The translations under genes and the position numbers were made by a program. A stretch of DNA of 64,000 bases from Schmidtea polychroa (Eukaryota), in contig CM097886.1 in assembly GCA_044892525.1 (NCBI GenBank), positions 31,186,001 through 31,250,000 of the forward strand. The letters are read 5' to 3'. Position 1 is the stretch's first letter. Every line of letters begins with the position of its first letter. A model generated the notes under the pieces. That model saw nothing but the letters and a program-made list of their open reading frames with translations. It had not been told where the DNA came from and searched no databases. Shown here one piece after another: positions 12,217 through 58,142 of this stretch.

Positions 12217-12364
12217 CATAGTGCCCGTGAATCACTTCACGTTGGTACTGCACTATGCAGGCGAGACGCCAGCAAGCAGGTGAGCTTCTGCCTTAAAACT
12301 ACTCCTTGCTGAGGCCTCGACTTCCCATTCACGACTGCCGATAGAAGGGCTTACGTCCATTTCC
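12217..12364 (-). ncRNA. Conserved three-domain structured RNA element near the LTR end (copies at 3409-3550, 6507-6647 and 38179-38326)
   Basis: Stems covary among three divergent LTRs while the loops UUCUAAC/UUCUAUC, RCUCAC and AGUACCAA are conserved; G-U pairs favour the minus strand. Confidence 0.7.
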
Positions 12365-12623
12365 TTACACAACCACCTATCAGGATTCGCTGAATGCAAA
12401 TTGGGAAATTCTCACTAGATCTTGCGGGTTCTCTACTCAACCCACTTAATTAAAGTCTAATTATTCATGAACGAAAACGTGTAAGACAACAAAATTTATT
12501 AATTTCAACGTTATGACACAAGGATTCAGCTGTACACTTTACTAATGTTGGTCGAAAGAAGAGAAAACATCATAATCAACATAGATCGGATCCTTGTTCC
12601 TCATCCTGACCGCCACTGGGGTT

Positions 12624-13412
12624 TTATTGTTTCTCCCATTCAGTGTCGGCGAATAATTCATCGAGGTTGAAAAACTCGGAAGCGTTCTCTTCCCACCTTA
12701 CGCCAGCGGCTGATATGATTCGCGCTGAGGGTCCCGTTGTTAGGTCGATGGACACGTGAGAGTTGCCACCGTTGGTTGAGTCCTCTATTGATGGGATGTT
12801 TGGCTTTGTAGTGGCGCGCTCGCGCTGTCTCTTCTTGCGCTCTGCACGAGAGAGTTGTTTGCGCTTGGGTTTGCTTGAAGAGGCCACTTGCAGAAGGGTG
12901 ACTGAGACGGATGGACTAGCAGTGGGGGGCTTACTGGTACCCGTGATGACAACATCTGGTCGCTTGGGGGACAATTCGGTTTCGACGCAGTCTCGGCACG
13001 GTCTCTTGAACGGTGGAGAGGGATTCGAGGAAAGGTTGTGATGAGGCGGAAAGATGTCATCGGCCTCTCGGATGGGAACCTGCACTATTTTTCGGGTTGT
13101 AGCCGCCTGCACGTAAACCTTATGCAGTGCCTCGGATTGTTCTCTGATTAGACTTCTTTGGGCACGGCTCTCAGATATTAGCGCGTCCCGGCAATGCTCG
13201 CTACGATCGAGCTTCTTTTGGATCTCTTTCATCCGAGCGGGACTAAACCATGTCCCTTCCAGCTCGTCTATCTTCCTCTTGTAACGTCCAATCTGAGTTT
13301 GTAGGTCCTTTATCACCGTATTTTTATCCGCGCACGAGAAGCACGGCCGTAATGCTGATTTAGTGGTTGGTAGCATGCTTGCTATAAATAATACTAATGA
13401 AATGTAGAACAT
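12624..13412 (-). CDS. LTR-encoded 262-aa protein (ORF-B family: coiled coil, S/P-rich, basic NLS-like stretch)
   Basis: IDELEGTWFSPARMKE matches CRNFECTWFPPAEMKK; identical copy at 38586-39374. Confidence 0.7.
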   Translation of the reverse strand: MFYISLVLFIASMLPTTKSALRPCFSCADKNTVIKDLQTQIGRYKRKIDELEGTWFSPARMKEIQKKLDRSEHCRDALISESRAQRSLIREQSEALHKVYVQAATTRKIVQVPIREADDIFPPHHNLSSNPSPPFKRPCRDCVETELSPKRPDVVITGTSKPPTASPSVSVTLLQVASSSKPKRKQLSRAERKKRQRERATTKPNIPSIEDSTNGGNSHVSIDLTTGPSARIISAAGVRWEENASEFFNLDELFADTEWEKQ

Positions 13413-16182
13413 ACGATTTTAGAATAAATTAGATACGACCTACGGCCATTCGTGGATGCTTGACCGACAAAAAAAAAAAGAAAACTTATTCTACAATCCG
13501 GTTTTACCACGGATCTTATTTGTTGAAACAGTTTTATTTAATCAAATGCCATCGGTTTGACGCATGCTATTAACTTTGACTCTCTATTGATCTAACTGTA
13601 TACATGAGGGGCGTAACAATTAATAGGGTGTAAATATAATATTGGTGAAATAATATAATAACGCTTTAGTGGAGGGACATTATAGTATGCGACTAAACCT
13701 TACTATAAATTAGCTATTTTAATTTATTAAAAACAAATTACTATCGCTATTCTCAACATATTTTTGATTCGAAATTTGTTATTGGAAGTGTACTTTTAAT
13801 TCGGTAGTGAATGTGATTATCCATGTTGTCTACCATTTGTCTGAAAATATGTGATGAGTTTACATCAGCCATTACTTGAACACCCTAATGGGATATCTCA
13901 TTGGTCATAGCACATGTCCAAATTTACGGATACTACTGTCGACTAGTTGATTACATTATCGAACTATTGTGAATGTCACGTGTCGCGACTATCATGTATG
14001 CTAGTCTGATATTCTGTGCTCTCACCACATGGATTCGTGTATGGCTACTATCTTATCTCATTTACTTGGTGTATGCCATTTTCACAGTGATTTTATCGAT
14101 CCTGCTGTCATATGATTTTCTCTGCACGGTGATTTATTTGAATTATGATTTATGCTACCGTCAGTTCTCATCGCGGAATTTTACCCTTATCAACTTGTGT
14201 GAATGATCACCATCGTTTGGAAATTTATTGGATCTTTTCAGTGATCGTCGAGGGAATAATTCTACCAAATGCTGAAGCATATTACTACTCGCGTCATTCT
14301 ACTCGGATTTTCCTATTCAGATGTAATGCCGTCTCGATGAAAACTGTCCTTAGCCATTCGAAAATTTCTCTCAGGTTCAATAATTTGGATATATACCGTG
14401 ATGACCTGGCTCTTATTGTAGAAATAAATGTTATTAATTAAATTTGGTGATATTTTACCTGTTTATAATTTTTGAAATAACTAAGTCTATAAGAACTTTC
14501 TGATTATAATATTAGAGAGGTTTTCGTAGAATCTCGCATTTTATAGTTTCGAGTTAGTTAAAGTTTTTAGAATACTTTCGTAACCTGACATGCAATCAGG
14601 ACAGGCTAGACGTCATCGGGTCTATGATAACGGAATTTCATACGAAATCAGTTCTACTGAGGCCGGCAAATAGACGTTGTCGCAATTAATTTGATGAAAC
14701 CATGTTTCCAGATGAAGCGTACTATGAGATGTTGTTATTTTTGACGAAGTTCACTAAATCGTGGTCTGGATCTCTTTTTTCAATAGGGGTAAGATTTACG
14801 AAAACGACTTGACGAAAGAAAAAGGAATGCGACGCCCTCAGTCACTGTGCAAATCCTTGAAAATCCCTTCATTCGTACGACTATCTTTGTGAAATCATTG
14901 TCTACCGGTTATTTTTTATCCATACCCCATTATGATAATTTAGTCGCATCTTCAGCGATAGGACCCGTGAAGAAGCCTTCACATTTCGGCCCAATCTAGC
15001 TGCGTGATTGAAATACTCCATGTCCACCGGCTGAGCTCCCGAAGGCACCTCATACCATGACATGGAGTATCTCAACTCCACGTTACTCGTTAAATGAAAA
15101 TTCATAAAATCTTTAATTCAAATAAAATACGGACATCTGGATAAAAATATTTTATTAATTCTGAAATACTTAAATAATACAAATTCCATCAATACGTTAA
15201 AGTTATTAAAATGGAGAATCAAATGAAGAGAGTTAACCAAAATGTTTAATCGTTAATATTTACCATTACTATTAGCTTTACAAATACTTAAATAAATCTA
15301 TAAACAAATGAAATACCCCTTACTATTGTTTAGGCTGAGTCAAAATTCAATGTTGTTCGTTCCAAATAGTTTGAATGGTGGTCCGTTGGATGTCGATTAT
15401 TGTGATGGATGGTATTTCGGTCTCTGAACTGGTTTTGAATAGTCGTGGAGTTTTCTGAATGACGGTTGCTTGGCTAGTAGTGTCGATCCTATGAAATGCT
15501 CGGGGTTAACAGTCAAAACAGTAAACATTTTTCTTACCTATGAAATGCTCGGGGTTAACAGTAAATTTAATGTTTTTGGTAGTTGTATATATATCAAATT
15601 CTTATTTGTGCGGACCAATCAGAGTTGAGTACCGCTTATTTCTATTAATTTAATATAATTTTCTTGTTTTTAGGTTGTTTTTTCCTTATTTTCTTTATTT
15701 TTAATATGTTTTTCTATTTATTTCCTTAATTTCCTTATTATTTCTTGAATTCCTCTTTATTTATTTGTCAACTTGTTCTATTTTAATCTTTTCTTAATTT
15801 TATTTTTTGTTTTAATTCTTATGTCTTAATTATTATTTTCCTTATATCTTATTCTATTTTATTTCTGATTTTATTTATTTTATTTTTATTTTTCGTAATG
15901 TTCTACTTCCCTACTTTCTTATTTTTCAACGATTAAATTTTCGACTCAGCCCAACAAATCACTCGGGGACCCATCAAAATTGCGTCCCGCAATTGCATAA
16001 TTAACTTAATTCATTCATTCAAAAAAAAATATAACACGAACACGGAAAATTATACAACAATGATAAAAATTTTATTGTAAGATCAAGGTCAAAGCAAGAC
16101 CAAGCAAGTATCACTTAAGGTGATAGTTTGTACATACAATAAAAGTTTCCACATATAATAACACAAATGTTTGAATTAGAGT

Positions 16183-19007: not shown

Positions 19008-20396
19008 TTACTCCGTTCTACCCTTCTCCTCTTTCCTCACGGTCATCTTGATATATATGGTATCATTTCTCGCCATATCTTCTACTCTTTGTTGTGAGAT
19101 GAACGTAGGTGCTCCTGTTGCTGATCCTTCTTCGTTGAGGGGCCTCTGGTAAGCTATTTGATTCCCCGTTGTTTTGAAGCTTTGCTCATGTATACTTTGG
19201 TTGTTCATCAGAGTAATATCGATTTTTGCCTGGAACGGCCATTCTAATATTTCGTCGTATTCTCCTTTACATAACAGAAAGAAAATCGAAAAGTGCGTAT
19301 CCAATCCGGTTCCGTCCCCGTTGGGATATACCTTCATTTTCATTTTGTACCCATTTTTCCAAGAATGGAATGTAGGACTTGTTATTCTTGTCTCTTCTCC
19401 GGTTTTTGCTTTTCGTATTCTTTCTTTTACTCCCGTTATTTTCCATATGTAGGGTGCTGTTGGGGTTATCTCATTTAGATTTATTTCCCGTATTTTCTGA
19501 TGTAGCTCCTTGGCCTGATTATTACTGATTTCTGTTCGGTTTATTTGCATCTTTATGTTTGCTCGGGCTTCTTCGAACGCTTCCCTTTCTTCTAGTAGTT
19601 CTTTGACTAACACTTTCAACGATGTTATCTCTATCTCCATTTGTTTTACTTTCTCTTCGCTTTCTTGTAGCGCAGTCGACCACATTTCTGCGTGAGTTGA
19701 AGCATTTTCTACTAAATGATGTGGTAACTCACCTCGGTGTAGTAGTTTCTGACAACCCCATCTACCTAGTACACATGTCATTCTTTTCTTTGCGCATTCC
19801 CTTAGATGCTGTGCCACCTTCATTATTTCCCCTTGGTTACATCCGTTTGGGCATTCCCCACTGAACTCTGCACATACTCTCTCCTCTTGGACATTGTGAT
19901 GTTTGAGGGTGAGATTTATCCACGTATCTATTTCTCCACAGTGTTCACATCTTTCCAATCTCTCTTCACACTGCCTTTGATGCTCTTTTTCTTCGCTTGC
20001 TCGAATGGTTTTATGGCACCTTTCACACTGGCCAATTCTGTACATACATTCTCCCATATGTTGTACTACCTTCCATATTACTCCTTTCCATTCGCATGGG
20101 GCATTTTTGCATCCCAGGTTGGTGTTTAACATGTCTTTCACTGCGGCTTTATCCTCGTTAGTGTCTTCTAAACTCGATATTAGTGTCTCTTTACACACCG
20201 GGCACCTCTGTGGTCTATTCTTTATTGCTTCACTGATACATTCTTTACATACTCTGCATCCACATTGCGTTTGGTGAGGTTCCTTTAACAGCTTTTCACA
20301 TATTCCGCACGTAACATGTTTGTGTATTCTGATCGTTGTAGATTTTCGGACTTGCTCGACAATCTCTCTGAACTCTTCTCTTTGTCGTTTATCCAT
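19008..20396 (-). CDS. TRAF-family protein (RING, TRAF zinc fingers, coiled coil, MATH/TRAF-C), intronless, inside the retroelement
   Basis: CGICEKLLKEPHQTQCGCRVCKECI..CPVC RING; YIWKITGV..SPTF..GYKMKMKVYPNGDGTGLDTHFSIFFLLCKGEYDEILEWPF MATH. Confidence 0.93.
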   Translation of the reverse strand: MDKRQREEFREIVEQVRKSTTIRIHKHVTCGICEKLLKEPHQTQCGCRVCKECISEAIKNRPQRCPVCKETLISSLEDTNEDKAAVKDMLNTNLGCKNAPCEWKGVIWKVVQHMGECMYRIGQCERCHKTIRASEEKEHQRQCEERLERCEHCGEIDTWINLTLKHHNVQEERVCAEFSGECPNGCNQGEIMKVAQHLRECAKKRMTCVLGRWGCQKLLHRGELPHHLVENASTHAEMWSTALQESEEKVKQMEIEITSLKVLVKELLEEREAFEEARANIKMQINRTEISNNQAKELHQKIREINLNEITPTAPYIWKITGVKERIRKAKTGEETRITSPTFHSWKNGYKMKMKVYPNGDGTGLDTHFSIFFLLCKGEYDEILEWPFQAKIDITLMNNQSIHEQSFKTTGNQIAYQRPLNEEGSATGAPTFISQQRVEDMARNDTIYIKMTVRKEEKGRTE

Positions 20397-20481
20397 TCTA
20401 TAATTATATGTACAAATAGTTCTTATCGATACAGGTTCGATATTTTATTTACAATTATTTACATTTTAAGCTAGGTTTGGT

Positions 20482-24000: not shown

Positions 24001-26521
24001 GCCATTGGCTTTTGACTACTCGCAATAATGGGTGTGTCCTTTCTCTATTTGCATAGTTCTCGATCATCGTCAATAATCCTCCTAATATTTCGAAATCTAA
24101 TCGATCTTTTGCCCATCCAGGTATTTTAATTTTTACCTCCTTTACAATCTTTTCCGCTTCTGATGGTTGGATACCTAATCGTCCAGTGATCGGTTCTGCG
24201 AGTTGCTGCATCATGTTCATTCGGTAGGTTTGCGAACGTGTGGTTAATGTACGGCCTTCTGGTTGACTAGTGGCTGTTTTTGGAATTGATTTGCATCGTG
24301 CCACGTTTACGTATATTGGCCTGGTAAAGGGGTTATTTACCAATTTCACTCTTACATTAGTTTCGCCTACGAATAAGATTTCATAGGGTCCTTTTCCGTT
24401 GCGTTGTAACTTTTTTGTGGTTCCTGGAATTAATTCCGGGGTTTCTATCATTACCCAATCACCTGTTTGGAACGTATGTTGCTTCACGTTTTTCTTTCGA
24501 TCGTGTAAATCTTTATAACTTTCCTGGTAGAACTTGATATTTAATCCCGCAGTTTCCCAAATTTCTTGCATTCTTTCCTTGAATCTCGTAACATAATCGT
24601 CGATCTCCATATACTGCGATATCGGTGGTTGGTATTCCAGGTCCATTGGCATGTTGCACTCTCTTCCGTACATTAATTTAAATGGGCTCATTTTCGTTGA
24701 TTCGTGAATTGACATTCTGTACGCCATAAGACATAGGTTTATATATTCGTCCCAATCTCGTTGGTGACGATCGACGTAATTTGATAACATTTGTATAAGT
24801 GTTCCATTAAATCTTTCCGTCATCCCATTGGTTTGAGGGTGGTATGGAGATGTTCTTAGTTTTGCTATTTTGAAGTAATTTGTTACTTCGCTCATTATCT
24901 CACTCATAAAATTAGTTCCCTGATCGGTTAAGATTTGTTTTGGTGTTCCATATCGGCAACATATCTCTTCTACCAAAATTTTTGCGATTGTTTTAGCTTT
25001 TTGGTCTGGCATCGCGAATGCTTCTGGGAATTTCGTAAGAAAGTCTGTGATCACTAGAATGTAAACGTTTCCTTTATCTGACTCTGGTAGTGGACCAACT
25101 ACGTCCATGGATATCATTGTCATTGGTTCTATTGGTACTGGCATTGGCGTTAAAGGTGCTTTCCATTTCGATCCAGTATTCTTCCTGGTTGCACAAGTTA
25201 GACAATTTTTTACCCATTCGGTTACATCTTCAGTTAACGTAGGCCAAAAATATTTCTGTTTCATTCTTGCTAACGTCTTTTTCGATGACATATGTCCTCC
25301 CAATCTCCCATCGTGATATTGCGTTAGTAACTCTTTTCGTCGGTTTTCCGGTATACACATTAATCGTTTTTCCCCATCCATTATCAGCAACCAATCTTTC
25401 TCTATAATATATCGGTGTCGGTGTTTATCCATATGTTCTTTTAATTTTTGGTCTTTCGCATATACCTCTGTCTTTCCGGTTTTTACATAATCGATAATTT
25501 GTTTTAATTCCGCGTCCTCTTGTTGGTCCTTTCGCAATTGACAGAAATCCAAATCTTCCGCTACTATTAAGCATATGCGTTGCATTTCTGAATCCACCAA
25601 ATCTGGGAAAATAAATCTTGACATACAATCGGCGTTGGCATTTGCTCTTCCCGCTTTGAATTTTATAAATGGGGAGTATTCTTGCAATTGCATGGCCCAT
25701 CTCATCAGTCTACTGGACGCTTCTTTATGTTGCCCTAACCACACTAATGGTTGATGATCTGTGGTTATACATATCTCATGTCCCCATAGTAAGTATCGGA
25801 AGTGTTTGATAGCTTGTATTATAGCCAATGCTTCCCGTTCTGTTACCGAATAGTTCTTTTCGTGCTTTTTGAATGTTCGACTGTAATACCCGATTACTCT
25901 CTCTTTTCCTTCATCATCTAATTGTCCCAGAATCGCGCCTGCCGCGTACCCGCTTGCATCCGTTGCCAATAGAAATGGCTTCTTAAAATCTGGGTGTACG
26001 AGGATAGGTGCTTCGATTAGTTTATCTCTCAGCGTTTCGAACGCCTGTTGTTGTTCTTTTTCCCAAATGAACGAAATATCCTTCTTTACTAATTCCTGGA
26101 TTGGTTTTGCAATTCCTGCATAATTTTTGATAAATTTGCGATAGTATCCGCATAATCCTAGAAATTCCTGAACTTGGGTGACAGTTTTCGGTGCTGGACA
26201 TGTTTTTATTTTCTCAATGTTTCTTGGATCTGGCTCCTTTCCTTTAGCTGACACTATGTGTCCTAAAAACGTGACTTTTTCCTTTGCCCAATCGCATTTT
26301 GATGGTTTGAGTTTGAGTTTCCACTGTCTTAATCTAATAAATACGTTTCGGATATCTTCTAGATGTTGTTCAAATGTCGCTGAATAGATTAGTAAATCAT
26401 CAATATATACCATACATTGTTTGATTCCATGGGTGACAAAGTTCATACACCGTTGAAATGATGCTGGTGCGTTAGTCAGTCCAAATGGCATTTTCCTGAA
26501 TTGATATAGATCTCGTCCCAA
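21002..26521 (-). CDS. Polyprotein part 2: RT C-half, RNase H, integrase (HHCC, DDE, GPY), two ankyrin blocks, signal/TM, FN3-like ectodomain, TM, tail
   Basis: MPFGLTNAPASFQR, VYIDDLLI, LATDASG, TDHQPL, HDGRLGGH..CLTC, SMDVVGP, TDQGTNF, NGMTERFN, GPYEI; GDTPLH, GYTPLMIAA, KNALHHA, RTPLQQA, GETAMMYAA. Confidence 0.93.
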   Translation of the reverse strand: MGRDLYQFRKMPFGLTNAPASFQRCMNFVTHGIKQCMVYIDDLLIYSATFEQHLEDIRNVFIRLRQWKLKLKPSKCDWAKEKVTFLGHIVSAKGKEPDPRNIEKIKTCPAPKTVTQVQEFLGLCGYYRKFIKNYAGIAKPIQELVKKDISFIWEKEQQQAFETLRDKLIEAPILVHPDFKKPFLLATDASGYAAGAILGQLDDEGKERVIGYYSRTFKKHEKNYSVTEREALAIIQAIKHFRYLLWGHEICITTDHQPLVWLGQHKEASSRLMRWAMQLQEYSPFIKFKAGRANANADCMSRFIFPDLVDSEMQRICLIVAEDLDFCQLRKDQQEDAELKQIIDYVKTGKTEVYAKDQKLKEHMDKHRHRYIIEKDWLLIMDGEKRLMCIPENRRKELLTQYHDGRLGGHMSSKKTLARMKQKYFWPTLTEDVTEWVKNCLTCATRKNTGSKWKAPLTPMPVPIEPMTMISMDVVGPLPESDKGNVYILVITDFLTKFPEAFAMPDQKAKTIAKILVEEICCRYGTPKQILTDQGTNFMSEIMSEVTNYFKIAKLRTSPYHPQTNGMTERFNGTLIQMLSNYVDRHQRDWDEYINLCLMAYRMSIHESTKMSPFKLMYGRECNMPMDLEYQPPISQYMEIDDYVTRFKERMQEIWETAGLNIKFYQESYKDLHDRKKNVKQHTFQTGDWVMIETPELIPGTTKKLQRNGKGPYEILFVGETNVRVKLVNNPFTRPIYVNVARCKSIPKTATSQPEGRTLTTRSQTYRMNMMQQLAEPITGRLGIQPSEAEKIVKEVKIKIPGWAKDRLDFEILGGLLTMIENYANRERTHPLLRVVKSQWPILFTITDHYGDTPLHKLMKVGNNEQILETIEAFHDCKRSTEQTNNQGYTPLMIAANRGKTKDIITALLDTGSKITTQDHERKNALHHAIEGRSTEAFTSLMELLSYEDNREVGNMYDGLLTAIKEKLTTITGILITWRNPIRNDYMINVNEAFTRGENTLMREAMKGHQLFEIPNQLLERGIKFTNHKDEQLAKKRIDTFEKSLFQFTNQVRNKYWETVSVLYMMDTMNNIRENYLNIIQILTAEERINNPNGKKTKIRYEKSRESKSTTNQTVTNNVIETKSMSIDQEAIIRKAKEVFFEEMLELPDEIILSKIIKTVHTYARDQTTDLDIGKIKTFLPRAFTMVTKDSRTPLQQAILAAKENRAITIMRILGEMGEETNTKNEQGETAMMYAAITKIHPKTLHILHQSGSKLDERSNEGNSTLDWATIQPNLEMIRFICKNATKEEVENMCKNTSQFQWNTVRKNREAMKLLLTWRVPQNNKYAINVNEFYENGENAMVKNTLTKGGTPKIILIVLNREDLKFTQNQNEQQRIGKHRRIQLRELVKEWNRKRHAATGRKEFEFEAKLARNRVLTTYRRLLNDINVEDDILNDSGGDKHDDNNGKGRKEDKEKREPEGGKPENKDSDTKREGNSPGTKTKEEEKSNNGKQRVCLPFTNKEIETNMILMIIMLTMIELVTAHGGTRTIKETKEAENQDSKEDELKQEKKKQAQEQQWDLKEEWDLKERCILGRCMSRAYQKLVLINEDTEPITEVRIQEAYRNRDGKRITNVKGKEVHLGKGGEVVITQLQPRKEHKVCISRLGPGERCHQYVTQQQPPKEYTVCIWRNESKRECRRYPGKRGKKRKNRDEKDEGGKHKKTGEEAQDNYVSEEEMEKIQKMAKEGMNEEIARIRERMKGNGKRGNEKSAEAISTLTNQEKPESISVKQMMWISGIIITGAFLIITGGTIKIIKDKRHRGELEMTRIRNFQHRVKRPSDIKQEQWVEAWNAQRPPNSRI

Positions 26522-29500
26522 CGTGAAAGCTGTTTTCTCTTTGTCCTCATCTTTGACTTTAATCTGCCAGTATCCACTTTTAGATCTAAAGAAGTAAAAT
26601 ATGCTGCCCCTTGCAACATCAATAACATCTCATTGATGTCCGGCAATGGATAGGTATCTCTCTTGGTCACTGCGTTTAACTTCCGATAATCGATACAGAA
26701 TCGTTGGGTGCCATCTTTCTTTTTTACCATGACCACTGGGAATTGCCAAGGTGAGCAACTTGGTTCGATTACTTTTGCGTCTAGCATCTTTTGTACTTCT
26801 GTTTCGGCTATTTCTTTCTGCATTTCTGCTAGCTTGTATGGTCTCAATGCAATTGGGGTTTCGTCTATGAGTGGTATTGCATGTAAGGTAACATCACATG
26901 TACCCAAGTCTAAATCTGAGATGGCGAATATATCTTTATATTCTACCAACAATCGGTGCAATTTTTTCTTTTCGTCATTCGTCAACAACATACTATCTAT
27001 TGTCCATAATTCATCATCTTTGATCATCTCGTTGGTCACTTTCGGTAATTCTATGTCCATCATTGGGGTCAATCTTCCCAATTTTTCGTTCTCATAAATG
27101 ATTTTGTCTTCCTCTTCGAAATTCGTGATGTTGAGCGGTATCACTCCTTCTTGGTTTATTGTGATTATTTCTCTTGCGAGTGGTAATTCTCGTCGCTTTT
27201 CGAATGACTTGCTTGGTTCAAAGATAACTTCTCCTTCCATACCCGTATCCACTTTTATCTGACAAATCATCTGCGATTTTGCTGGTACTATTATTTTTTC
27301 TGGACATCTGATGACTGCATTCATTTTGCATATTCTACCGGTTTTGTCTTTTAAACACATGGTTGTTAAGTCAATTACGACTTCCTTTAACAATTCTGGC
27401 ATCAAATCCGTTCCGATTATGCATGGTACGCTAAGTTTTGGTATTACTGCCAAATACGTTTCAATTTCGTTGTCCTGGTATCTCAATGTAGTCCACCATC
27501 TTCCGACCACGTCCACTGTTTCTTTACTACATGCTATAATGTGAATTGTTGTTGATTCGATATCCTTCCAGTGTTTACTGGGGATTTGATTAATCGCTAT
27601 CGCTGATACATTAGCTCCGGTGTCTATCATAGCATTGGTTTCTTTACCATTGATTTGAATCATAACTGTTACTGCTGGACCTCCAGGTAAACTCATCGCT
27701 GCTATTGTTCTTACGTCATCTGCTTGATCTACACTTTTGGTACGTCGTGTTGGCATATAATGCATACCGGGTTGACTCGGTAATTGCGGATACATATTTT
27801 GTGTCATGGTCAAAGCTGTTTGTGGTCCCACGATATCCGGTGGTATATAGCTTCCATTGGCGATCCAGGTGTTTGTCTTTTCCTTTTCCCAATATGGTGC
27901 CGTTTCCATTGGTTTTTCGTTTGGGTTTCTGTTTGGATAAAGACATTTATCGTTCCCGTTATCATCGTCGTCACTATCGCTGTTAGATGATTGGCTTCTA
28001 AATCGGTCCAAGAATTTTGGCTTATTCTTTTTCAATTGTCGTCTTGTTGCTTCATCGTACATTACTTTCCGGAATCGTCTGCCTACTTCCTCGTCGGTTC
28101 CTTTAATCTTTGTTAATATTTTAATCAATCGCTTTATCCGATGAATGTCTTTTGAGTGACCATGTAATACCATGGTTTTAGCTAAAAATGGTAAGAAGCC
28201 TACTATCATTTTCCAATTTACTTTCTTTTCTCGCTTGTATATATCAAAACAAGCTAACATTTGTGTTAGTATTACTCTGACTATCTGAATTATGAGTATG
28301 ATCCCTAATATCCCGGCCATCATTTGTCCAAAAACTAAGAATCTTCCCCACATTGCTTTCATCATGTTTGACGTAGCTTGTTGAAAATGGTCTGGCGATA
28401 ATAGCAGCTCGTAATTCGGGCCTGATTGATAGTTTGTGCCCCCAGTTATTGTTACCATATTAGACAAAATGGATTCTCGTCTGGCTGGAAAGAGTACGTT
28501 AAGCCGTGCTGTTTCTAGATCTTCTGGGGAATACATACCACCGTTTGACACGTCTATAGGTTTGAAATCTAGCTCTGTGGCGAGTTCTATTAATCCAAAT
28601 TTCTTGGGTTCCTCGGATATGGTTTTTCCCGGTAACATCATCCATTTCCCATCGGGTCTTTCATACAAAGGTCCGTATGCATTAGAACAGTTAAAGAGAT
28701 TTGGGTAGAAACCCACTGGATTCATAATTCTAGTGACTGGTTGGACGAATCGATTTTGTCCTTTATAACGAATTTCTAATTCATTTGCACATCTCTTTTC
28801 GGGTAGTATGGATTTTTCTGGCATTCGTGCATACGTCTTGGTACACTGGTATGTGTACATCACTTCTCCTACCATTCTACCAAAGTGTCCATCTGGTAAT
28901 GGGAGTGATGGCATCGTGTTATCTGGGTGCGTTATCGCAATAGCTAGCTTTGTTTTCAATATTTCTTTATTCAATGAACAATCGTTTTGTATCAGATCGT
29001 AATATACTTTTTGCAAGGTCGTTTGTCCGCGATGAAATAGAAAATCCATTTTATTATTTGCATATAAGTATAGTTTTACGTCCTCCGTTGCTATCTTTCC
29101 CACTGCTCTATCGATTATTTGTCTCGACATATAGATACCTGCGTAATTGGTTTTATATACTATACTGTCACATTTGGTGGTTTCTTTCTCTTTGATAAAT
29201 CTCATACCTAGATCTGGATCGTCTGTGATTAATGCTGTTGGTGTCTTCTGCGTTGAAAGTCTCTTTTCTCTGGGAGATGGTGGCATTGGTTTTCCATTTC
29301 GCATTCTCACTCTGTCGTTTCCATCCTCGTCGTTCTCGTTCTCATATATTTCTCCTTTTACTTCATTGAACAAAGCACTTTTTAACAGTTGGAGTCGGCA
29401 TTTTTGGGTATTAGCTTCATAGATTATAGTTGATACTCCTGTCCTGCATACGTTTTCTGTAGCTCTACACGTTGGGTTGGTCTTCATTTGGTAATTATTT

Positions 29501-32500
29501 GCGTCAAATTGCGCTTCGTATTCTTTTAATTCGACCGTGTAAGACTCGATCACTACAACTCCCGATATTACCTCGCCTCGGATCGTATACGTACCTCCGT
29601 TACATGACCCATCTGATGATTTTACTTTTCCGGATACGTAAACACTTTCGGTTTTAATCATTCCAGTTTGTCCGTGAATTGTCACTCCGTTATGCATTTT
29701 TAGCGCTCCGGTTCTAAATAGCTCTTTACAATCCTCTCGTTGTATTGATACGATTTCCTTATCCAGACCGGGTAGTATAAGAGTCGAATACGAATATTGT
29801 CCACAGTAATATGCGAGTACCTTTTTTGATACTACGCATTCCCTTGCTTGCGTTCTGATGAAATCTGATTCTTGATATACATGGTAAGTAACTTTTGTTC
29901 TCACGATGTCCAATTTGTTGGGTGAGGCTTGTCTGCATTCTTCTATGTCTCTCAATGAGTATTTATCTCTCATTATCATATTATCACAATCGTAGATGGT
30001 GAAACCTGTTGCTCCACTTGTGCACAACATCCATATCATCATAGTCATCATTAACGAATTTATTGATGCTTTTCTGCTTGCGGGATCTTTCATCGGTAGT
30101 TCCCATTCTAGTTCATTTAACAGTTTTTTCAATCTAACTTGCATCGACCTTTCTTGCTCATTTTTCCGTGGCGCTTGTATCAGTCTTTTCCATCCTCCTG
30201 CACGAATAATATGTGGTTCAATAGTATTCTCTATGATTGAAACGGTCATTTCCACATGATTTGCAAACTGTTTATTTGGTATTTTCCTCGCAGCTAGTCC
30301 CATCAAATTATACATCAAATAAGTGATTACCACTAGGTGATGTTCGTCATCATTTGCATTTGTCGTGAGCTGCTCAATCACTCTCTTTGTTTCGTCCCAA
30401 TCCGTTTTGGTGGTTTTCGTTTTCTCTTTGATTAACTTTGGGATTATCCCCGAAATGGTGTGCCATAATTGTCTAGCTTCCGTACTGGCTACTTTCCGTT
30501 GCCACAAACGTCTAAGTTGTGGGTTTGTTATTATTAACATATCTTTTAACAATTCTCGTATCCATTTTTCTCCTCTTTCGATCGTTGGTTGGGCTTCCTT
30601 TAGATCCCATACTATTTTATCCAATTTTTCTAATCGAACTTGCCCTTGTTCTTGCTTTAATTGTTCTTTGGTTTTGAACTCAGACTTTTCTCCTTGTTTC
30701 TTAGGTCTTCCTTTTGCCCGTTTTTCCATCATCGTTCCGGCTTCTCTGGTATTTTCGTAATTCGGATTTCTTTCGTTATCCGTTCTGGGTAATGAGCTAT
30801 CGTTATTTCTTAGCCACTCATTCCATTCGTCTATTATTTTGTCGGTTTGACCTTCTGGTGTTACTTTCGTTGGTTCTCTTTGCTTCTGGAATTGTTCATC
30901 CGTTTCGGTTTCCGTAGTATTGTCGATGATTTCTTTGATGTTCAGTTTCGTTGGTTGTTGATAACTCGTTGATGGCTGGTTATTAGTCCACATTTCGGCT
31001 CCTGTCGGCCATCTCACTAATAGCGGTGATCTTTCTCCTGGTTCATCGTCACTATCTTCCAGGATTATCTCTTCAACTTCTTCAGTTTCATTAGATTTAC
31101 TTGGTGCTTTGTTCGGACTTGGAGTACTCAAACTGCCTTTTGTTGGTTTAATAATTTTACTTTTCCTTTTTAACGGTTTTCCCAACGTTTCTGCCATTGT
31201 TAATACATTTGTCTCTTCCAATCTCATGGGGGTTATCCCGATGTCTGCATTATCGTCTAGTGATTTTCCGAACAGTTGCAGATGGAATGGAGTTTCATAT
31301 GCTAATTTCTTTTTTAATTCTCTAATTTTTGTTGTTGGATGCACCTCTAGTTCCTCGATGCTCTTGTCTGGATACTTGATTCGGATGTGATACCTCTCCT
31401 GGGTGTCTTGTGCCCATTCCTGATTTCTCCATTTTCGAATAATTTGTTCTAGCTGTTCTGGATACCATTCATTATATTGCCGGTATTCCTCTATTGCCTT
31501 TGCCATTCCTCTCAGATTGTGGATGTCCTCTGATGTCTTTAAGATGATGTTAGCCAACGCTACTACTTGGCGTCTTTGATTTTTCGCTCCCATTGCTAAA
31601 ATATCGCCTAATTGTTTATATCTTTCTTTCTCTTCTCGTTCTCTTGCTTCCGTCGCTTCCTCGCCGTCCATATCAGCATATTCACGTTCCTTTTTCCTCA
31701 TTGCATGAATATGTCTCGCTTCATTTTCGCTTTCTGATGTGACATCCGTCTCGCCTTCGTCATCTGATGTCTGTCCCCTTGCTTCCTCTTCATATTCTGG
31801 GGGTTCCTCTTCTTCTTCCTCCGATTCACTTTCTGTCTCACCAATGTCTGTTTCCACGAAGGTTCCTTTCCGGATTTCCCATTCCTTACTTTCTGCATTC
31901 CACACTCTTTCCCATGGGGTTCGTCTGCAGGATCTGGTGCTTAATTTCGTGATTTTTCCTTGTAGTTCTTTTTCTTTTAACCATTGTTGGTGGATTTTAA
32001 TTATTTCCGTAGATTTTTGATATAACGTTTTCATCCGGTCTCGTATTTCTTTTTGATAGGTTACATCTCTTGTTCGAAATTCATCCATTGGTACTATCCT
32101 GATTATCTGATGATTGTCCCACATACCCATTTCGCTTAACGAGGTGTCGTCCTCCGCTCGTAATATTATCTTATCGTACATCATGACTACATCATCCACC
32201 ATACCATCACTACTTTCGCTACGTACCTTCTCCGTTATCTCTTGGTTTATTTTTGATACCAAGTCATCCACTGTACTCTGATTGCTCATTTTTATTCGTC
32301 GTTTTTCTTCGTTCGGTAACCATATGGTTATTTCCAACCTCTGTGGCTGGGTTTCTTTTAACCTTCCATATTTGTGGATCAAATTTATGGTTCTCCAATC
32401 ACTCATTCGGAGCATTTCTGTATCTCGCAACCGGCTCATTAGTTCGTACATGGCTGGGGCTCGTCTGGTGATGAGTAAATCCCAGTTGTCTTCTACTTGC

Positions 32501-34854
32501 TCTTGAATTTGTTTGATCAGCTTATCCAGGTTTCGTCTCAGAGTACATTGTTTTATTTGTTCTAATTTCAATTTGATATTAAAATCATATTCTGCCTTGG
32601 CATCTTTAGCCCAGTCGTAAAGGTTGGCTGGTTGTTTTTCTTTATGCAACTTCAGTATTTGCGTTTCTCCTGGCCATATTAGTGCATCTACTAAGTGCAT
32701 ATCTGGTTTGATCTGTTCTCCTTGGTATTGATACAGATATTCTTTCTTTCTCGAACTTCCCAAATGCTCTCGTATCCAATCGAAAAGTTCGTCGGTGACT
32801 GTATTTTTTATCCACATTCTTTCAAGTCCTCTACTCGTTCCGATTTTTATTACATACCGCGTGGTATCGGCCTGCTTCATTTTTTCCATATAATTTTTTA
32901 TAATTGATTTTTCCTCGTTTGGTATTAAATCTTTCTCGTTTCTTTCCAATTTCATCACTTTTTGCACGAATCGCCTGAATGGTATTACGTCAATGAACTC
33001 TTGGTTCCTCACTACTACTGGGAGTATTTCCGCTACTTGTTTTATCGCTTCCTCCTTCCCTTTTCTCAACTTTATTTCGATATCCTCGTCTTCACTTTCG
33101 CTGGTTATCTCGCTTTCGCCTTCTTCCTCTTTGATTTCCCCTTTTGGAGGTTCGCTTATTTCATTCAGCTGTAGTATTTCTCCACCCAAACTACTTACAT
33201 AGTCTTCTTCCTCGTCTGACGATGCTACATCTTTTGTCCTTTTCATCATATTGATTTGCAAGTTTCTCATCCTTGGTACTCTCTTTAGTTTCTTTCTTTC
33301 GAATATCGTTGTTTCTTCTGATTCTAATTCCTGTAGCATTTGGTGGTTTAGTTGACTGGTTTGTTCCTTGCTCTTGTTATTTTCATCTTCTGTCTCGGCT
33401 TTCGCTTTATTATGTTCTTTTTCGATTTTATCTTTTATCTTTTTCCAGAATATTTTCTGAATTCTCTGGTTTCCTTTTAAAATCGTGGTTGAATTCTCTG
33501 TTTTCATTTCCGTTGTTATTTCTTTTACCTTTTCTGGTTCAGTCATGGGTACTACCCTTGGGCTTTTCCCGTAATTGTAGCAATACTGGCTCTTCATGTC
33601 TTTTACTAACCTCATCATATTTATTCGCAATGGTTGTTCTTGTCGTTGTTGGTTGCGTTCTTGTTTTATCTTCTCTTCCTCGGCCTGTAGCCTTTGCCAT
33701 TCTTGTACATGTTGATGCACTTCATAATTGTTGAGATTTTCGGTACTCCTCATCATACGTATATTCTGGGTTTGTTGTGGTGCTGATTCTTGTCTTGGTC
33801 TCATCATTTGCTGCATCATCTGTTTCATCTGCGAAATTTCCTGCATAACGTTCATTTGTTTTCCTTCGTTAGGGTTACTTTGTCGTTGCGGATTCGCTAT
33901 ATAATTATTATTTCGCTGTGGTGGTCGTTGTTGTTGGCCCCTTTCTCGGCAATCTCTGGAGATGTGACCTGGCTGACCACAGTTAAAACAGCCTCGCAAT
34001 TGGCATACATTTTCGGTATGTCCACGCCGTCCGCAACGATTACAATTTGAATTTCTATAACAATCTCTGTCCCAGTGTCCTGGTTTACCGCATGTTCGGC
34101 ACTGCTTGTTATCGTTCATATTTCGCCGATTATTGAAATTGTTCTCGTTATTCGGGTTGTTACGATTACCATTATTCCCGTTTGATCGTCCTTGTGGTGG
34201 TTTGAAAATTTGGTGCGCTCCTGGTATAAATTGATTCATTTTCGGTTCTTGATTGTTGTTATCTCCGTTATCCGCTTTCGCTATTGCTGTCGCTATCCTT
34301 CCCTCCTCTTGCATAATATTCATTTGAGCTGGAAGGTGGAGCTCGCATCTTGTAGCCCAGTCTATGGCTTCCTCTAATGTTTTGCACATTTGACAACCTA
34401 CTGAGGCTCTTACTTCTTCTCGGCGTAATCCCTCTATGAAATAACCGATCAGATTTTCTTCGGGTAATTTTCCATTCATTGCTTTCTTCGCTAATCTCCG
34501 CAATTCACTGGCATATAATGTTATCGATTCGTTTGCTCTTTGTTTCCTATTTGCTAGTTCGCCCAACGCCTGGTTGATTGGCTTACCGGCTCCGAAGGTT
34601 TTCTTCAGGAATGTTTTAATATCTTCCCACTTTTCTAATTTCGTGTCTCTCTCTTTAGCTTCTAAATATACCTCTAATGCACTATCGCACAAAAACAACG
34701 GCATCCTTTTACTAATTGCTTCGGGTGTCCATCCACACACAGTGATATAAACTTCAAAATTAGTTATGAACGATGCTAGCTTGTTTGCGTTTCCGTTGAA
34801 CGGTTCTCCTCTGAACTTCTCTTTATACTCGTCGGTTTTTACGACATTCGTCAT
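26476..34854 (-). CDS. Polyprotein part 1: Gag (CA, three CCHC knuckles), accessory modules, Bcl-2-like domain, envelope glycoprotein, aspartic protease, dUTPase-like linker, RT N-half
   Basis: [79 protein letters not shown]; Cys-rich ectodomain between a signal peptide and a TM. Confidence 0.93.
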   Translation of the reverse strand: [2792 protein letters not shown]

Positions 34855-36164
34855 GATTGGTGTTCTAGGTTCGTCTGTTTCTTTTAAATTGTCTAACGAT
34901 GTGACTAAACTTTGGGCTGATAATTCCTCGGTTGACGTTGCTAAACTATTAGTGATATCGGACAGACTTTCTCTACTTCGAGATCGACTAGGGGTATATC
35001 CGAGATTTTCTTGGTCAAATATGGGTACTTGATTGGTTCTTCTGGATCCTTGTGATATTCCTCTTTGATGTTTAATGGATCGTCCTCTTTTGAGTTGTTG
35101 TAATTCGTCTCCTGAAAATAATACGTCTCCTGGCTTACTAGAAGATCTAAGATTGGGTTTATCCGTGATTCCTTTCTTACGCTTCTTGGTAATTAGCGGC
35201 TATTGAATTGGACGCGTTCGGTTCTGATTGTGTTTCCTTCGATAAATATTCTGTATGAATCTGCTACTGAGATCCTGAGGAGATTTACTAATCCTTGGCA
35301 GATGGCTGCTAATACTTCTTCCGTTCTGGAGTCTTCCGGTTGCTGTGTCTCTCGGTGCGGGTTCTGAATGGATTTATCCTTGGTTGATTGTCGATTTCTT
35401 CGAATTCCTTTTGTGCAGGTTCTGGATTGTCTTGGTTGGCTGGATTGGCTTGATATCTAAAATGAAAAAATGATCTCGTGTTGCATTTGCTTACACGACT
35501 TCATCATTCTTTCTACAACATTCAAAAACAGACACCTTTTAGGTTTCTGTTTGTGCTTCCCCTATCTTTTGTGAAATCCTTTCTGCGGGTTATAATATCC
35601 CATCAGCCCGTATTTTCCGTCGATTTTAAATTATCTATATGGGGTAGTAACAATTATCTATAAAGTCGTAATAATTATCTATTCGTTATCAATTATAGTA
35701 AAAATAGGTCGTTGTCGGTCTCTGCTTATTACCCCCCTTTCATTTTCCTAATCCTTTTGCGCTGTTGTCGCTATTTTACTTTTCATATTCACTATTATTA
35801 CGCTCGGTTCTACTCTGGAACCAATAAAATGCATTTTCCCGGTTTAATCAAAAAAAAAATATTCCGTAGAGTTTCTCTACTTCACTGGGATCCCTTTAAT
35901 TAGTTAGTTACTTTCCTCTTTACTCATTATCATCATTTCATCTATTCTTTATTTTCTATTATCTCTTTACTTCGTTTCCTTCTTCCCTTTCCTTTTTCCT
36001 TATAATCTTATTTTCTTTTCCACGAGCTCGTTTATTTCCTCTCTAAACTCGAATTTTCAAAATTACATTCAATTTGTTCTAGCTAGCTTTAATATTCCAT
36101 ATCACTAGTAATTTAAATATTATCTCGTTGTAGCTTAACTGCTATCTCTCGCTTTTCTAGGCCT

Positions 36165-37709: not shown

Positions 37710-38026
37710 AGCTGTTGGAAAAGTAATGTTTTAATAATATGTAGTAAATTAATAGTTAATTCGTTAATTGGTTTCTTTAACCATTGTTAATTATTTAATT
37801 TGACTACTTTATCTCCTTTATTTATATATATCCTTAATTTTTCTATTATCTACATTTTGATTTTCTCTACCTAGTTCCTAATATAATTTAATAATCAATA
37901 GTCACTTTGCATTCGTCAAGCAATGGTCGATTGAAAATAGAAAATCGATGTGATAAATCCCTTTAATTTTGTATGAAAATCCCGGTGAATTTCGCATTCG
38001 TTAATAGAAATTTCAATCGACTGTAG

Positions 38027-38044: not shown

Positions 38045-38051
38045 AAAATCA

Positions 38052-41000
38052 TGTTGGGGTTACACCTCGGCTGACCATTCTACCATGTTGGCGGGTCTAA
38101 GGGTTGATTGTCCATCTCGAATAAAAGGTGCCACCGATTTGTCAACCTGGAGTGAAACCCCACATAACTTTCTTCCAACATAGTGCCCGTGAATCACTTC
38201 ACGTTGGTACTGCACTATGCAGGCGAGACGCCAGCAAGCAGGTGAGCTTCTGCCTTAAAACTACTCCTTGCTGAGGCCTCGACTTCCCATTCACGACTGC
38301 CGATAGAAGGGCTTACGTCCATTTCCTTACACAACCACCTATCAGGATTCGCTGAATGCAAATTGGGAAATTCTCACTAGATCTTGCGGGTTCTCTACTC
38401 AACCCACTTAATTAAAGTCTAATTATTCATGAACGAAAACGTGTAAGACAACAAAATTTATTAATTTCAACGTTATGACACAAGGATTCAGCTGTACACT
38501 TTACTAATGTTGGTCGAAAGAAGAGAAAACATCATAATCAACATAGATCGGATCCTTGTTCCTCATCCTGACCGCCACTGGGGTTTTATTGTTTCTCCCA
38601 TTCAGTGTCGGCGAATAATTCATCGAGGTTGAAAAACTCGGAAGCGTTCTCTTCCCACCTTACGCCAGCGGCTGATATGATTCGCGCTGAGGGTCCCGTT
38701 GTTAGGTCGATGGACACGTGAGAGTTGCCACCGTTGGTTGAGTCCTCTATTGATGGGATGTTTGGCTTTGTAGTGGCGCGCTCGCGCTGTCTCTTCTTGC
38801 GCTCTGCACGAGAGAGTTGTTTGCGCTTGGGTTTGCTTGAAGAGGCCACTTGCAGAAGGGTGACTGAGACGGATGGACTAGCAGTGGGGGGCTTACTGGT
38901 ACCCGTGATGACAACATCTGGTCGCTTGGGGGACAATTCGGTTTCGACGCAGTCTCGGCACGGTCTCTTGAACGGTGGAGAGGGATTCGAGGAAAGGTTG
39001 TGATGAGGCGGAAAGATGTCATCGGCCTCTCGGATGGGAACCTGCACTATTTTTCGGGTTGTAGCCGCCTGCACGTAAACCTTATGCAGTGCCTCGGATT
39101 GTTCTCTGATTAGACTTCTTTGGGCACGGCTCTCAGATATTAGCGCGTCCCGGCAATGCTCGCTACGATCGAGCTTCTTTTGGATCTCTTTCATCCGAGC
39201 GGGACTAAACCATGTCCCTTCCAGCTCGTCTATCTTCCTCTTGTAACGTCCAATCTGAGTTTGTAGGTCCTTTATCACCGTATTTTTATCCGCGCACGAG
39301 AAGCACGGCCGTAATGCTGATTTAGTGGTTGGTAGCATGCTTGCTATAAATAATACTAATGAAATGTAGAACATACGATTTTAGAATAAATTAGATACGA
39401 CCTACGGCCATTCGTGGATGCTTGACCGACAAAAAAAAAAAGAAAACTTATTCTACAATCCGGTTTTACCACGGATCTTATTTGTTGAAACAGTTTTATT
39501 TAATCAAATGCCATCGGTTTGACGCATGCTATTAACTTTGACTCTCTATTGATCTAACTGTATACATGAGGGGCGTAACAATTAATAGGGTGTAAATATA
39601 ATATTGGTGAAATAATATAATAACGCTTTAGTGGAGGGACATTATAGTATGCGACTAAACCTTACTATAAATTAGCTATTTTAATTTATTAAAAACAAAT
39701 TACTATCGCTATTCTCAACATATTTTTGATTCGAAATTTGTTATTGGAAGTGTACTTTTAATTCGGTAGTGAATGTGATTATCCATGTTGTCTACCATTT
39801 GTCTGAAAATATGTGATGAGTTTACATCAGCCATTACTTGAACACCCTAATGGGATATCTCATTGGTCATAGCACATGTCCAAATTTACGGATACTACTG
39901 TCGACTAGTTGATTACATTATCGAACTATTGTGAATGTCACGTGTCGCGACTATCATGTATGCTAGTCTGATATTCTGTGCTCTCACCACATGGATTCGT
40001 GTATGGCTACTATCTTATCTCATTTACTTGGTGTATGCCATTTTCACAGTGATTTTATCGATCCTGCTGTCATATGATTTTCTCTGCACGGTGATTTATT
40101 TGAATTATGATTTATGCTACCGTCAGTTCTCATCGCGGAATTTTACCCTTATCAACTTGTGTGAATGATCACCATCGTTTGGAAATTTATTGGATCTTTT
40201 CAGTGATCGTCGAGGGAATAATTCTACCAAATGCTGAAGCATATTACTACTCGCGTCATTCTACTCGGATTTTCCTATTCAGATGTAATGCCGTCTCGAT
40301 GAAAACTGTCCTTAGCCATTCGAAAATTTCTCTCAGGTTCAATAATTTGGATATATACCGTGATGACCTGGCTCTTATTGTAGAAATAAATGTTATTAAT
40401 TAAATTTGGTGATATTTTACCTGTTTATAATTTTTGAAATAACTAAGTCTATAAGAACTTTCTGATTATAATATTAGAGAGGTTTTCGTAGAATCTCGCA
40501 TTTTATAGTTTCGAGTTAGTTAAAGTTTTTAGAATACTTTCGTAACCTGACATGCAATCAGGACAGGCTAGACGTCATCGGGTCTATGATAACGGAATTT
40601 CATACGAAATCAGTTCTACTGAGGCCGGCAAATAGACGTTGTCGCAATTAATTTGATGAAACCATGTTTCCAGATGAAGCGTACTATGAGATGTTGTTAT
40701 TTTTGACGAAGTTCACTAAATCGTGGTCTGGATCTCTTTTTTCAATAGGGGTAAGATTTACGAAAACGACTTGACGAAAGAAAAAGGAATGCGACGCCCT
40801 CAGTCACTGTGCAAATCCTTGAAAATCCCTTCATTCGTACGACTATCTTTGTGAAATCATTGTCTACCGGTTATTTTTTATCCATACCCCATTATGATAA
40901 TTTAGTCGCATCTTCAGCGATAGGACCCGTGAAGAAGCCTTCACATTTCGGCCCAATCTAGCTGCGTGATTGAAATACTCCATGTCCACCGGCTGAGCTC

Positions 41001-41918
41001 CCGAAGGCACCTCATACCATGACATGGAGTATCTCAACTCCACGTTACTCGTTAAATGAAAATTCATAAAATCTTTAATTCAAATAAAATACGGACATCT
41101 GGATAAAAATATTTTATTAATTCTGAAATACTTAAATAATACAAATTCCATCAATACGTTAAAGTTATTAAAATGGAGAATCAAATGAAGAGAGTTAACC
41201 AAAATGTTTAATCGTTAATATTTACCATTACTATTAGCTTTACAAATACTTAAATAAATCTATAAACAAATGAAATACCCCTTACTATTGTTTAGGCTGA
41301 GTCAAAATTCAATGTTGTTCGTTCCAAATAGTTTGAATGGTGGTCCGTTGGATGTCGATTATTGTGATGGATGGTATTTCGGTCTCTGAACTGGTTTTGA
41401 ATAGTCGTGGAGTTTTCTGAATGACGGTTGCTTGGCTAGTAGTGTCGATCCTATGAAATGCTCGGGGTTAACAGTCAAAACAGTAAACATTTTTCTTACC
41501 TATGAAATGCTCGGGGTTAACAGTAAATTTAATGTTTTTGGTAGTTGTATATATATCAAATTCTTATTTGTGCGGACCAATCAGAGTTGAGTACCGCTTA
41601 TTTCTATTAATTTAATATAATTTTCTTGTTTTTAGGTTGTTTTTTCCTTATTTTCTTTATTTTTAATATGTTTTTCTATTTATTTCCTTAATTTCCTTAT
41701 TATTTCTTGAATTCCTCTTTATTTATTTGTCAACTTGTTCTATTTTAATCTTTTCTTAATTTTATTTTTTGTTTTAATTCTTATGTCTTAATTATTATTT
41801 TCCTTATATCTTATTCTATTTTATTTCTGATTTTATTTATTTTATTTTTATTTTTCGTAATGTTCTACTTCCCTACTTTCTTATTTTTCAACGATTAAAT
41901 TTTCGACTCAGCCCAACA
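38052..41918 (-). repeat. 5' LTR of element Z
   Basis: Direct repeat of 12090-15956, followed on the minus strand by the PBS. Confidence 0.95.
38586..39374 (-). CDS. Second copy of the LTR-encoded 262-aa ORF-B protein
   Basis: Identical translation to 12624-13412. Confidence 0.7.
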   Translation of the reverse strand: MFYISLVLFIASMLPTTKSALRPCFSCADKNTVIKDLQTQIGRYKRKIDELEGTWFSPARMKEIQKKLDRSEHCRDALISESRAQRSLIREQSEALHKVYVQAATTRKIVQVPIREADDIFPPHHNLSSNPSPPFKRPCRDCVETELSPKRPDVVITGTSKPPTASPSVSVTLLQVASSSKPKRKQLSRAERKKRQRERATTKPNIPSIEDSTNGGNSHVSIDLTTGPSARIISAAGVRWEENASEFFNLDELFADTEWEKQ

Positions 41919-57200: not shown

Positions 57201-58142
57201 TTATCAGTTTATTATATATTATTTTAGCTATATTTTCTATTTGATCCTTTGGATTCATTCGCAAAAGTTTCTTGTATCTCGCTATTAAGTATGCCATCGC
57301 CATAATCACTTTATCTCGATTCACTTCTGTTGTAAACAATATTTTAAATACCGTCTCCTCTTTTGCTTCCTCGGTACTCAATTCTCTAATCTCTTTTTCC
57401 ATTTATTTAATTTTTTTGTAACTATATTTTCTATTAATGCTGATGGTTTTGCTTCTGGGAATCGTCTCATATTCATTGCTTTAATTAGCTCTGTTATCAT
57501 ATTCACGTCCCTATCATCATCCTGATTTTATGGAACGTCATGTCTCATATTATTGGCAATATCTCTTGGCAATATGTGGTGATGGGTTTACCCTTGTCAT
57601 CCAACAATATGAACTTGGTCATTGTAAAGAATAAGAATAATTGATAAATTCCAAAAACTTTATTTAAGAAATTGTGGTACTATTTATAATACCCGGTGTG
57701 TCGACACCAACACAATCAACAATAGTTTATGGGAAATAATAATCAGTGACATAATTTGAGGACCCAGACAATCGAAAATAATAAATTACACATGCAGGCA
57801 TTACATAATATAGGGTACAGGTTAGGGAAATCAAAAATTCCCATTATAATTACATCACAGTCATTATTTAAAATCTTGACATACCTGAACCCATCATTAT
57901 GTTATAAAAATTTTAATAATAATAATCAAATTAATGGTTTATGGATACATGCTGGTACTGATATAGAAGCAGCTCACACAATGAAATCTCCAAAATATAC
58001 TCAAAGAATATTTATTTAATTATTACTTAATATTTTTTAATTCATGCATTGTTTAAATATTTCAAGAAATATATTTTTGTGTTTATAAATCCAAAAATTT
58101 AATCTCAAGTTTTCATATTAATAGCATTTAAATTATTTTCTT

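Follow-up and report, generated by a model that had tools for sequence, protein, structure and literature searches.

How does an envelope glycoprotein come to be made, and released, when its coding sequence lies in frame between Gag and the protease of a retroelement? The question is raised by a 64,000-nucleotide stretch of the Schmidtea polychroa genome (GenBank assembly GCA_044892525.1, contig CM097886.1, positions 31,186,001 to 31,250,000), here called the window and numbered from its first letter, which carries a retroelement with long terminal repeats (LTRs) on its minus strand. In our judgement, this is very probably the envelope region of a young element of the Burro or GAG-ENV-POL type, with a predicted class III envelope glycoprotein (Env) that follows Gag and a Bcl-2-like domain and precedes the protease; host signal peptidase probably frees it at the front and the element's own protease at the back.

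Env in frame between Gag and protease

The minus-strand open reading frame (ORF) at 35199..26476 runs for 2,907 amino acids (aa) from stop to stop and carries Gag through Env to the protease (Table 1). Pfam profiles match it in the order Retrotrans_gag (aa167-260), zinc knuckles, PF24664 (Monjiviricetes_fusion) and retroviral protease (aa2512-2603) with no stop between them, and the element reads in one frame as Gag, Bcl-2-like domain, signal-like segment, 552-aa ectodomain, transmembrane segment, tail of ~200 aa, protease and reverse transcriptase (RT). Chance is excluded by far as a source of these matches (PF24664 E 3e-70, RVP E 2e-9, Retrotrans_gag E 1e-8). A preliminary description of the locus had listed a cysteine-rich ectodomain of about 550 aa with a set of short motifs, and a signal-like segment, transmembrane segment and tail running without a stop into a DTGA protease. 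This layout is borne out by the single ORF, and every motif was found, within or around an ectodomain holding 14 cysteines: SLMMTMM at aa1715 (30057), FTIYDC at aa1733 (30003), YSLRDIEEC at 1747, YQESDF at 1775, CNGG at 1866, KTNYAGIY at 2016, GEVMYTYQC at 2111, FVQPVTRI at 2151 and DTGA at aa2526 (27624). Across the whole 2,907-aa ORF, the Env transmembrane segment is the sole 19-residue window above 1.6 on the Kyte-Doolittle (KD) scale.

The host element of Env is a giant Ty3/gypsy (Metaviridae) LTR retroelement, as assigned from its LTRs and domain order: it has paired TG...CA LTRs with a short target-site duplication (ATAT), and Gag is followed by protease, RT, RNase H and integrase with gypsy-type domains. 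The whole element measures 29,829 bp. Because its two 3,867-bp LTRs are identical (0 differences), the element is very young. Assignment to Troyka was rejected, since this element has TG...CA termini and a 4-bp duplication.

Genome copies were collected as 2,830 first-look candidates, of which the best 73 were scored. All 73 match a 600-aa Env query at 100% without a stop; an open frame of 4,732 codons is present in 45 and one of at least 4,700 codons in 48. The frame of the window copy is broken inside RT (~26.5-26.6 kb), a defect peculiar to this copy; in L001 and L002 a single frame runs from Bcl-2 to integrase with RT read through. A programmed frameshift in RT was considered and rejected, since most copies read through. 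At least five Env lineages are present in the genome, namely A (the window element), B (L003, L004 and L008), C (L005 and L006), D (L009-L011) and E (L021); Env identity to lineage A is 36-38% for B-D and 55% for E. Pattern scans gave 4 matches against 4 in the control and 2 against 0, and three of the six loci turned out to be Env, which brought lineage E to light. At 11 of 15 ten-kb loci, which were picked partly for long open frames and are not a random sample, a single ORF covers both full Env and protease. At six of them (L003, L004 and L008-L011), one ORF extends from Gag through Env, protease, RT and RNase H to integrase.

The ratio of nonsynonymous to synonymous change (dN/dS) in Env was 0.12, 0.14 and 0.11 in three pairs and saturated in two others, including lineage B versus C. 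The window Env shows zero amino-acid change and 2.3-2.6% synonymous change relative to L001 and L002. Env is thus under purifying selection, with dN/dS about 0.1. The element family is young and high-copy.

Most of the long database relatives scanned have the same order. Env is followed by protease within one protein in 10 of the 14 best of them, and in the remaining four the protein stops within Env or shortly behind it. The survey of gene order in relatives that the preliminary description had suggested therefore turns out in its favor, the in-frame Gag-Env-protease order being found in other copies and in the databases. Two or more protease-like domains follow Env in P0003, P0006 and P0018. 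One further relative, P0009, is an Env-protease-RT-RNase H-integrase polyprotein whose source name is that of a Flavobacteriaceae metagenome-assembled genome (MAG) protein; it is likely eukaryotic DNA in a MAG bin.

The ectodomain and its predicted internal signal

Full HMMER scanning yielded 896 relatives at E<=0.001, although word-indexed homolog searches had found nothing. The Env alignment comprised 124 rows, i.e., the window sequence, four loci and 119 relatives shorter than 900 aa taken from the best 150 of the 896; 13 of the 14 cysteines are conserved in 90% or more of these sequences. The AlphaFold2 model built from this alignment had a predicted local distance difference test (pLDDT) score of 90.2 and a predicted template-modelling (pTM) score of 0.71, with a 48-residue central helix (residues 311-358). 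When compared with viral models by Foldseek, it ranked the glycoproteins of chu-, qin- and xinmoviruses first (E 3e-36, TM-score up to 0.72), and all 36 matches listed against the PDB were herpesvirus gB (best E 9e-14, TM-score 0.44). An earlier alignment of 8 Env sequences had yielded a model with pLDDT 35.8, whose Foldseek list (TM-score <=0.15) was set aside, and a PDB sequence search with the 8-sequence profile gave 0 matches. A search of viral_contigs produced 124 pattern matches, 0 of them confirmed. The ESM Atlas leads for Env, which were capsid-like and below 0.9 only, were rejected.

By profile and predicted fold, the ectodomain is a chuvirus-G/gB-like class III fusogen. It combines a predicted gB/rhabdovirus-G-like fold and a long central helix with the architecture of a signal peptide, an ectodomain and a single C-terminal transmembrane segment, the latter judged by hydropathy and motif pattern. 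The preliminary description had likened its motifs to chuvirus G and gB and had made its reading depend on a fusogen-like fold; the PF24664 match, the model confidence and the Foldseek matches to chuvirus-type G and gB all point the same way. The glycoproteins of chu-, qin-, xinmo- and related viruses (PF24664) share with the window Env the fold, the cysteine pattern and a signal followed by xxYDC, but they are stand-alone proteins of ~650 aa with 17-21% identity to it.

Such a glycoprotein might work inside the cell, serving in the membrane of the endoplasmic reticulum (ER) as a scaffold on which particles assemble or the protease is activated, rather than as an infectious envelope. An in-frame position does make Env hard to lose and purges stops whatever its role, but the low dN/dS and the cysteines conserved across the ectodomain exceed what mere frame keeping would demand, and the full gB-like architecture is retained. 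We regard an exclusively intracellular role as improbable.

A divergent Bcl-2-like domain lies immediately upstream of the signal segment; neither it nor the weak hydrophobicity of that segment in the window had been named in the preliminary description. A four-lineage profile of the domain matches Bcl-2/Bcl-xL PDB structures (best E 3e-4), and PF00452 matches range from E 0.04 in the window to 2e-6 in L009, none of them reaching the curated cut-off. Between this domain and the ectodomain, lineages A-D show basic residues followed by a hydrophobic stretch and then small residues directly before xxYDC, a pattern that lineage E repeats; the residues at -3 and -1 are small in all lineages and relatives examined, except for N at -3 in lineage D. 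In lineages A-D, the segment follows the BH2-like GGW motif by 25-50 aa, which is where Bcl-2 proteins carry their membrane anchor, and it could accordingly have been primarily the tail anchor of a captured Bcl-2 gene, reused as the Env signal. However, the segment abuts xxYDC as in stand-alone viral glycoproteins. It precedes Env in 14/14 embedded relatives, at a position equal to that of the N-terminal signal in 4/4 stand-alone glycoproteins examined, and the PF24664 alignment starts at position 4-7 of the profile, over the segment itself. Moreover, 11 of the 14 embedded relatives have the signal but no GGW, either in the adjacent 75 aa or, as far as detected, in the 110 aa upstream (P0008 being counted as GGW-bearing). 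An origin as a Bcl-2 anchor is therefore rather unlikely, and any anchoring of Bcl-2 by the segment would be secondary. Because the segment stands in the same place before xxYDC as in stand-alone glycoproteins, and most embedded relatives have no GGW nearby, it appears to be the signal that the viral glycoprotein brought with it; that a captured viral glycoprotein retained its signal peptide, now internal, is the simplest reading. Another PF24664 glycoprotein (P0140) has immunoglobulin domains upstream.

Proposed processing of the polyprotein

Under this reading, Gag and the cargo domains would be made in the cytosol, and the retained signal peptide would then act as an internal signal that directs the ectodomain into the ER. 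Cleavage by signal peptidase before xxYDC would leave Gag-Bcl-2 held in the membrane by the spent signal, while the transmembrane segment would stop transfer, so that the tail, protease, RT, RNase H and integrase remain in the cytosol, attached to Env, until released by the protease. Two membrane-anchored halves, Gag-Bcl-2 and Env-Pol, would thus be trimmed by the element's protease, the predicted end product being an enveloped particle able to pass from cell to cell. This signal-peptidase topology agrees with the sequences of all five lineages and of the 14 embedded relatives. Since cleavage by signal peptidase would sever Gag from Pol, no Gag-Pol fusion would survive, and Pol would be packaged via Env. 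The tethering of Pol to membranes, already suggested in the preliminary description, is a reasonable inference. More tentatively, and with the odds somewhat against it, Pol may be packaged as the cytoplasmic tail of Env, with clustered Env trimers switching on the protease, each replication round having to pass through a membrane-budded particle, and the spent signal anchoring Gag and the Bcl-2-like domain.

Alternatively, a dedicated spliced or subgenomic RNA might encode Env or Env-Pol, with a start at a methionine near the signal, or splicing might remove Env and leave a normal Gag-Pol; in either case the single frame would count for part of the output only. A single ORF yields Gag, Env and Pol at 1:1:1, an output that other retroelements avoid, and there are several methionines in the window signal and one at the start of the hydrophobic region in lineage D. 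The methionine position is, however, not conserved: lineage B has none before the middle of the hydrophobic region, and L005 and L006 differ at this site. A separate RNA would also not require an open Gag-Env-Pol frame, yet this frame is kept in lineages ~36% identical in Env. On these two grounds, a separate RNA appears unlikely. Among the joints listed in 4 of 12 runs (contigs, three of them guessed to be RNA), none skips Env, although contigs cannot show absence; a loose end was seen at 21579 in three runs.

Several observations weigh against an envelope processed in this way, besides the choice of the fifteen loci. The window signal is weakly hydrophobic (KD19 1.27, KD12 1.82) and is the weakest version, relatives having KD12 values of 3.0-3.4. 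Lineages A-C contain a second amphipathic segment after the transmembrane segment (KD19 1.3-1.4, with a proline and one or two charged residues); were it to cross the membrane, Pol would lie in the lumen. Env has one N-glycosylation sequon only, the TM-score to solved gB is only ~0.4, and a 1:1:1 output of Gag, Env and Pol is unusual. Full Env and protease do not share one ORF at L007, L012, L014 and L021, all of which are multiply broken copies, and lineage E is known from one broken copy (L021), with the frame break within the tail. Function and particle formation are, moreover, predicted from sequence and a fold model. The tail itself varies in length, measuring 214 aa from the end of the transmembrane segment to DTG in the window and 139 aa in lineage D.

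Further features and relation to known elements

The features of the window element and of its decayed neighbor are collected in Table 1.

Table 1. Features of the enveloped retroelement and of a second, decayed element in the window
Feature	Position	Strand	Evidence
5' LTR	38052..41918	-	3,867 bp, TG...CA ends
Gag: capsid-like domain and three CCHC knuckles	33940..34854	-	PF03732 (Retrotrans_gag) E 1e-8; PF00098 E 1e-7, 2 stretches; knuckles at aa367, 386, 404
Up to three possible ubiquitin-like domains	31189..32862	-	Weak: PF00240 E 0.003 (31189-31398), PF18036 E 0.16 (32086-32343)
Bcl-2-like domain, divergent, ending in BH2-like GGW motif	30190..30600	-	Profile and PF00452
Internal signal-peptide-like segment	30004..30078	-	Basic n-region, uncharged h-region, A-T-G before predicted mature N-terminus FTIYDC
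Predicted class III fusion-glycoprotein ectodomain	28348..30003	-	552 aa, 14 Cys; PF24664 E 3e-70
Env transmembrane anchor	28267..28341	-	aa2293-2311, KD19 2.53; position shared with lineages B, C and D
Predicted cytoplasmic tail, ~200 aa, joining Env to protease	27667..28266	-	Conserved amphipathic segment at start
Aspartyl protease	27391..27666	-	DTGA at 27624; PF00077 (RVP) E 2e-9
Remaining pol: RT C-terminal part, RNase H, integrase, ankyrin repeats, second signal-like segment, transmembrane segment	21002..26629	-	Pfam; Ank_2 E 2e-17
Accessory TRAF-like ORF (RING and MATH)	19008..20444	-	PF22486 (MATH_2) E 3e-27, PF00097 E 1e-4
3' LTR	12090..15956	-	3,867 bp
Second, decayed element (lineage D family): Bcl-2-like end, signal, Env in three pieces, transmembrane segment, protease	54309..57402	-	

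The third of the possible ubiquitin-like stretches, at 32638-32862, gave no ubiquitin-family profile match. At the C-terminus of the pol ORF (21005-22100, minus strand), a second signal-like segment (aa1543-1562 of P0002) is followed by ~240 aa with several cysteines and a transmembrane segment at aa1805-1830, predicting from the sequence a second surface protein within the same polyprotein; no convincing Pfam match and no ESM Atlas match were obtained for it. A signal-like segment is also present after integrase in lineage B. Four accessory ORFs lie 3' of pol (16183-20444, minus strand), encoding the RING and MATH protein (20444-19008), two coiled-coil-like products (18865-17759 and 17668-16892) and a protein with a signal and a transmembrane segment (16851-16183). 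Each LTR contains a 264-codon open frame (38586-39380 and 12624-13418, minus strand) with no Pfam match. By eye, the 5' LTR is not followed by a TGG-type tRNA primer site (38020-38051), nor is the 3' LTR preceded by a purine tract (15957-15990), and priming of the element may be non-canonical. A 74-bp tandem array occupies 36154-36671 within its 5' untranslated region.

The second enveloped element had been described as having the same Env-protease fusion. This stands for its ORF 55589..54309, in which the Env C-terminus, transmembrane segment, tail and protease share one frame (PF24664 E 2e-21, RVP E 6e-7), but not for Env as a whole, which is split over three ORFs (57168-56272, 56271-55570 and 55589-54309), each with a PF24664 match. 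Its 94%-identical relatives have open frames of up to ~3,090 codons. Pieces of its accessory ORFs are found at 48281-50279 (minus strand), among them an ORF at 49742-49260 that, by eye, resembles a DEDD exonuclease. Adjoining this element is a separate decayed gypsy element (43900-47700, minus strand) with Gag-like, protease, RT, RNase H and integrase pieces and no Env match. The window also holds an intron-free class II (Asp/Asn/Lys) tRNA-synthetase ORF at 3-1568 (minus strand; PF00152 E 7e-79) and a 15-bp tandem array at 59500-61200 (~94 offsets).

The preliminary description implied that an embedded Env was new, which does not hold, as the arrangement is already in print (PMC6431247, PMC13524379). 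The published description of planarian Burro elements places Env within the polyprotein between a BCL2-like domain and the protease (Arkhipova and Yushenova 2019, PMC6431247). The element studied here shares this position of Env, a similar length (29,829 bp, just under 30 kb, with a 4,732-codon frame), ankyrin repeats and a MATH domain. It differs, as far as the published description of Burro and GYPSM1 allows comparison, in polyprotein length (4,732 codons here versus 4,873 and 5,140 aa) and in the placement of MATH/TRAF, which is a separate ORF 3' of pol here and lies inside ORF1 or upstream there. Of the ubiquitin/SUMO-like, dUTPase-like and BIR domains of the Burro group, ubiquitin gave one match here, at E 0.003, and no match was found for BIR, in the ORFs scanned, or for dUTPase; the published Burro calls used the more sensitive HHpred.

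GAG-ENV-POL errantiviruses with HSV/gB-type Env are described from Platyhelminthes, Nematoda and Bryozoa by Chary and Hayashi (eLife, PMC13524379), who list six Schmidtea mediterranea elements, Smed_errantivirus_1-6. As presented there, these share the gene order and the gB-type class III Env with the window element. By eye, the window Env (A) is closest to that of Smed_errantivirus_5, roughly half of its residues being identical, and lineages B, C, D and E resemble elements 2, 1, 3 and 6. The same paper cites nematode endogenous retroviruses with ENV before POL (Sacco et al. 2022). The host phylum of those non-canonical nematode elements differs from that of the planarian element. They reportedly contain a continuous gag-env-pro-pol ORF. 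Atlas virus (Belpaoviridae) is described as an LTR element with Env in a single stop-free polyprotein, but with Gag-Pol-Env order, a class II phlebovirus-like fusogen and another RT lineage (PMC9094657).

The Gag-Env-protease arrangement is thus real and conserved, yet known since 2019 for the planarian Burro group. What is added here is an internal signal that, from its sequence context, appears to be the original signal peptide of the viral glycoprotein. Processing of the fused polyprotein, its topology and Pol packaging are not treated in the passages of PMC13524379 considered here; our searches turned up no statement on signal-peptidase processing or Env-borne Pol packaging for GAG-ENV-POL elements, though Sacco et al. 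2022 and figure-only material may hold one. The value of the present element is that it is young and high-copy and comes with a confident model of the fusogen. Should the proposed processing hold, RT and integrase would enter the particle by a different route, with Env and not Gag as their carrier, which would suggest that the giant retroelements of planarians are true enveloped viruses moving between the cells of a stem-cell-rich animal.

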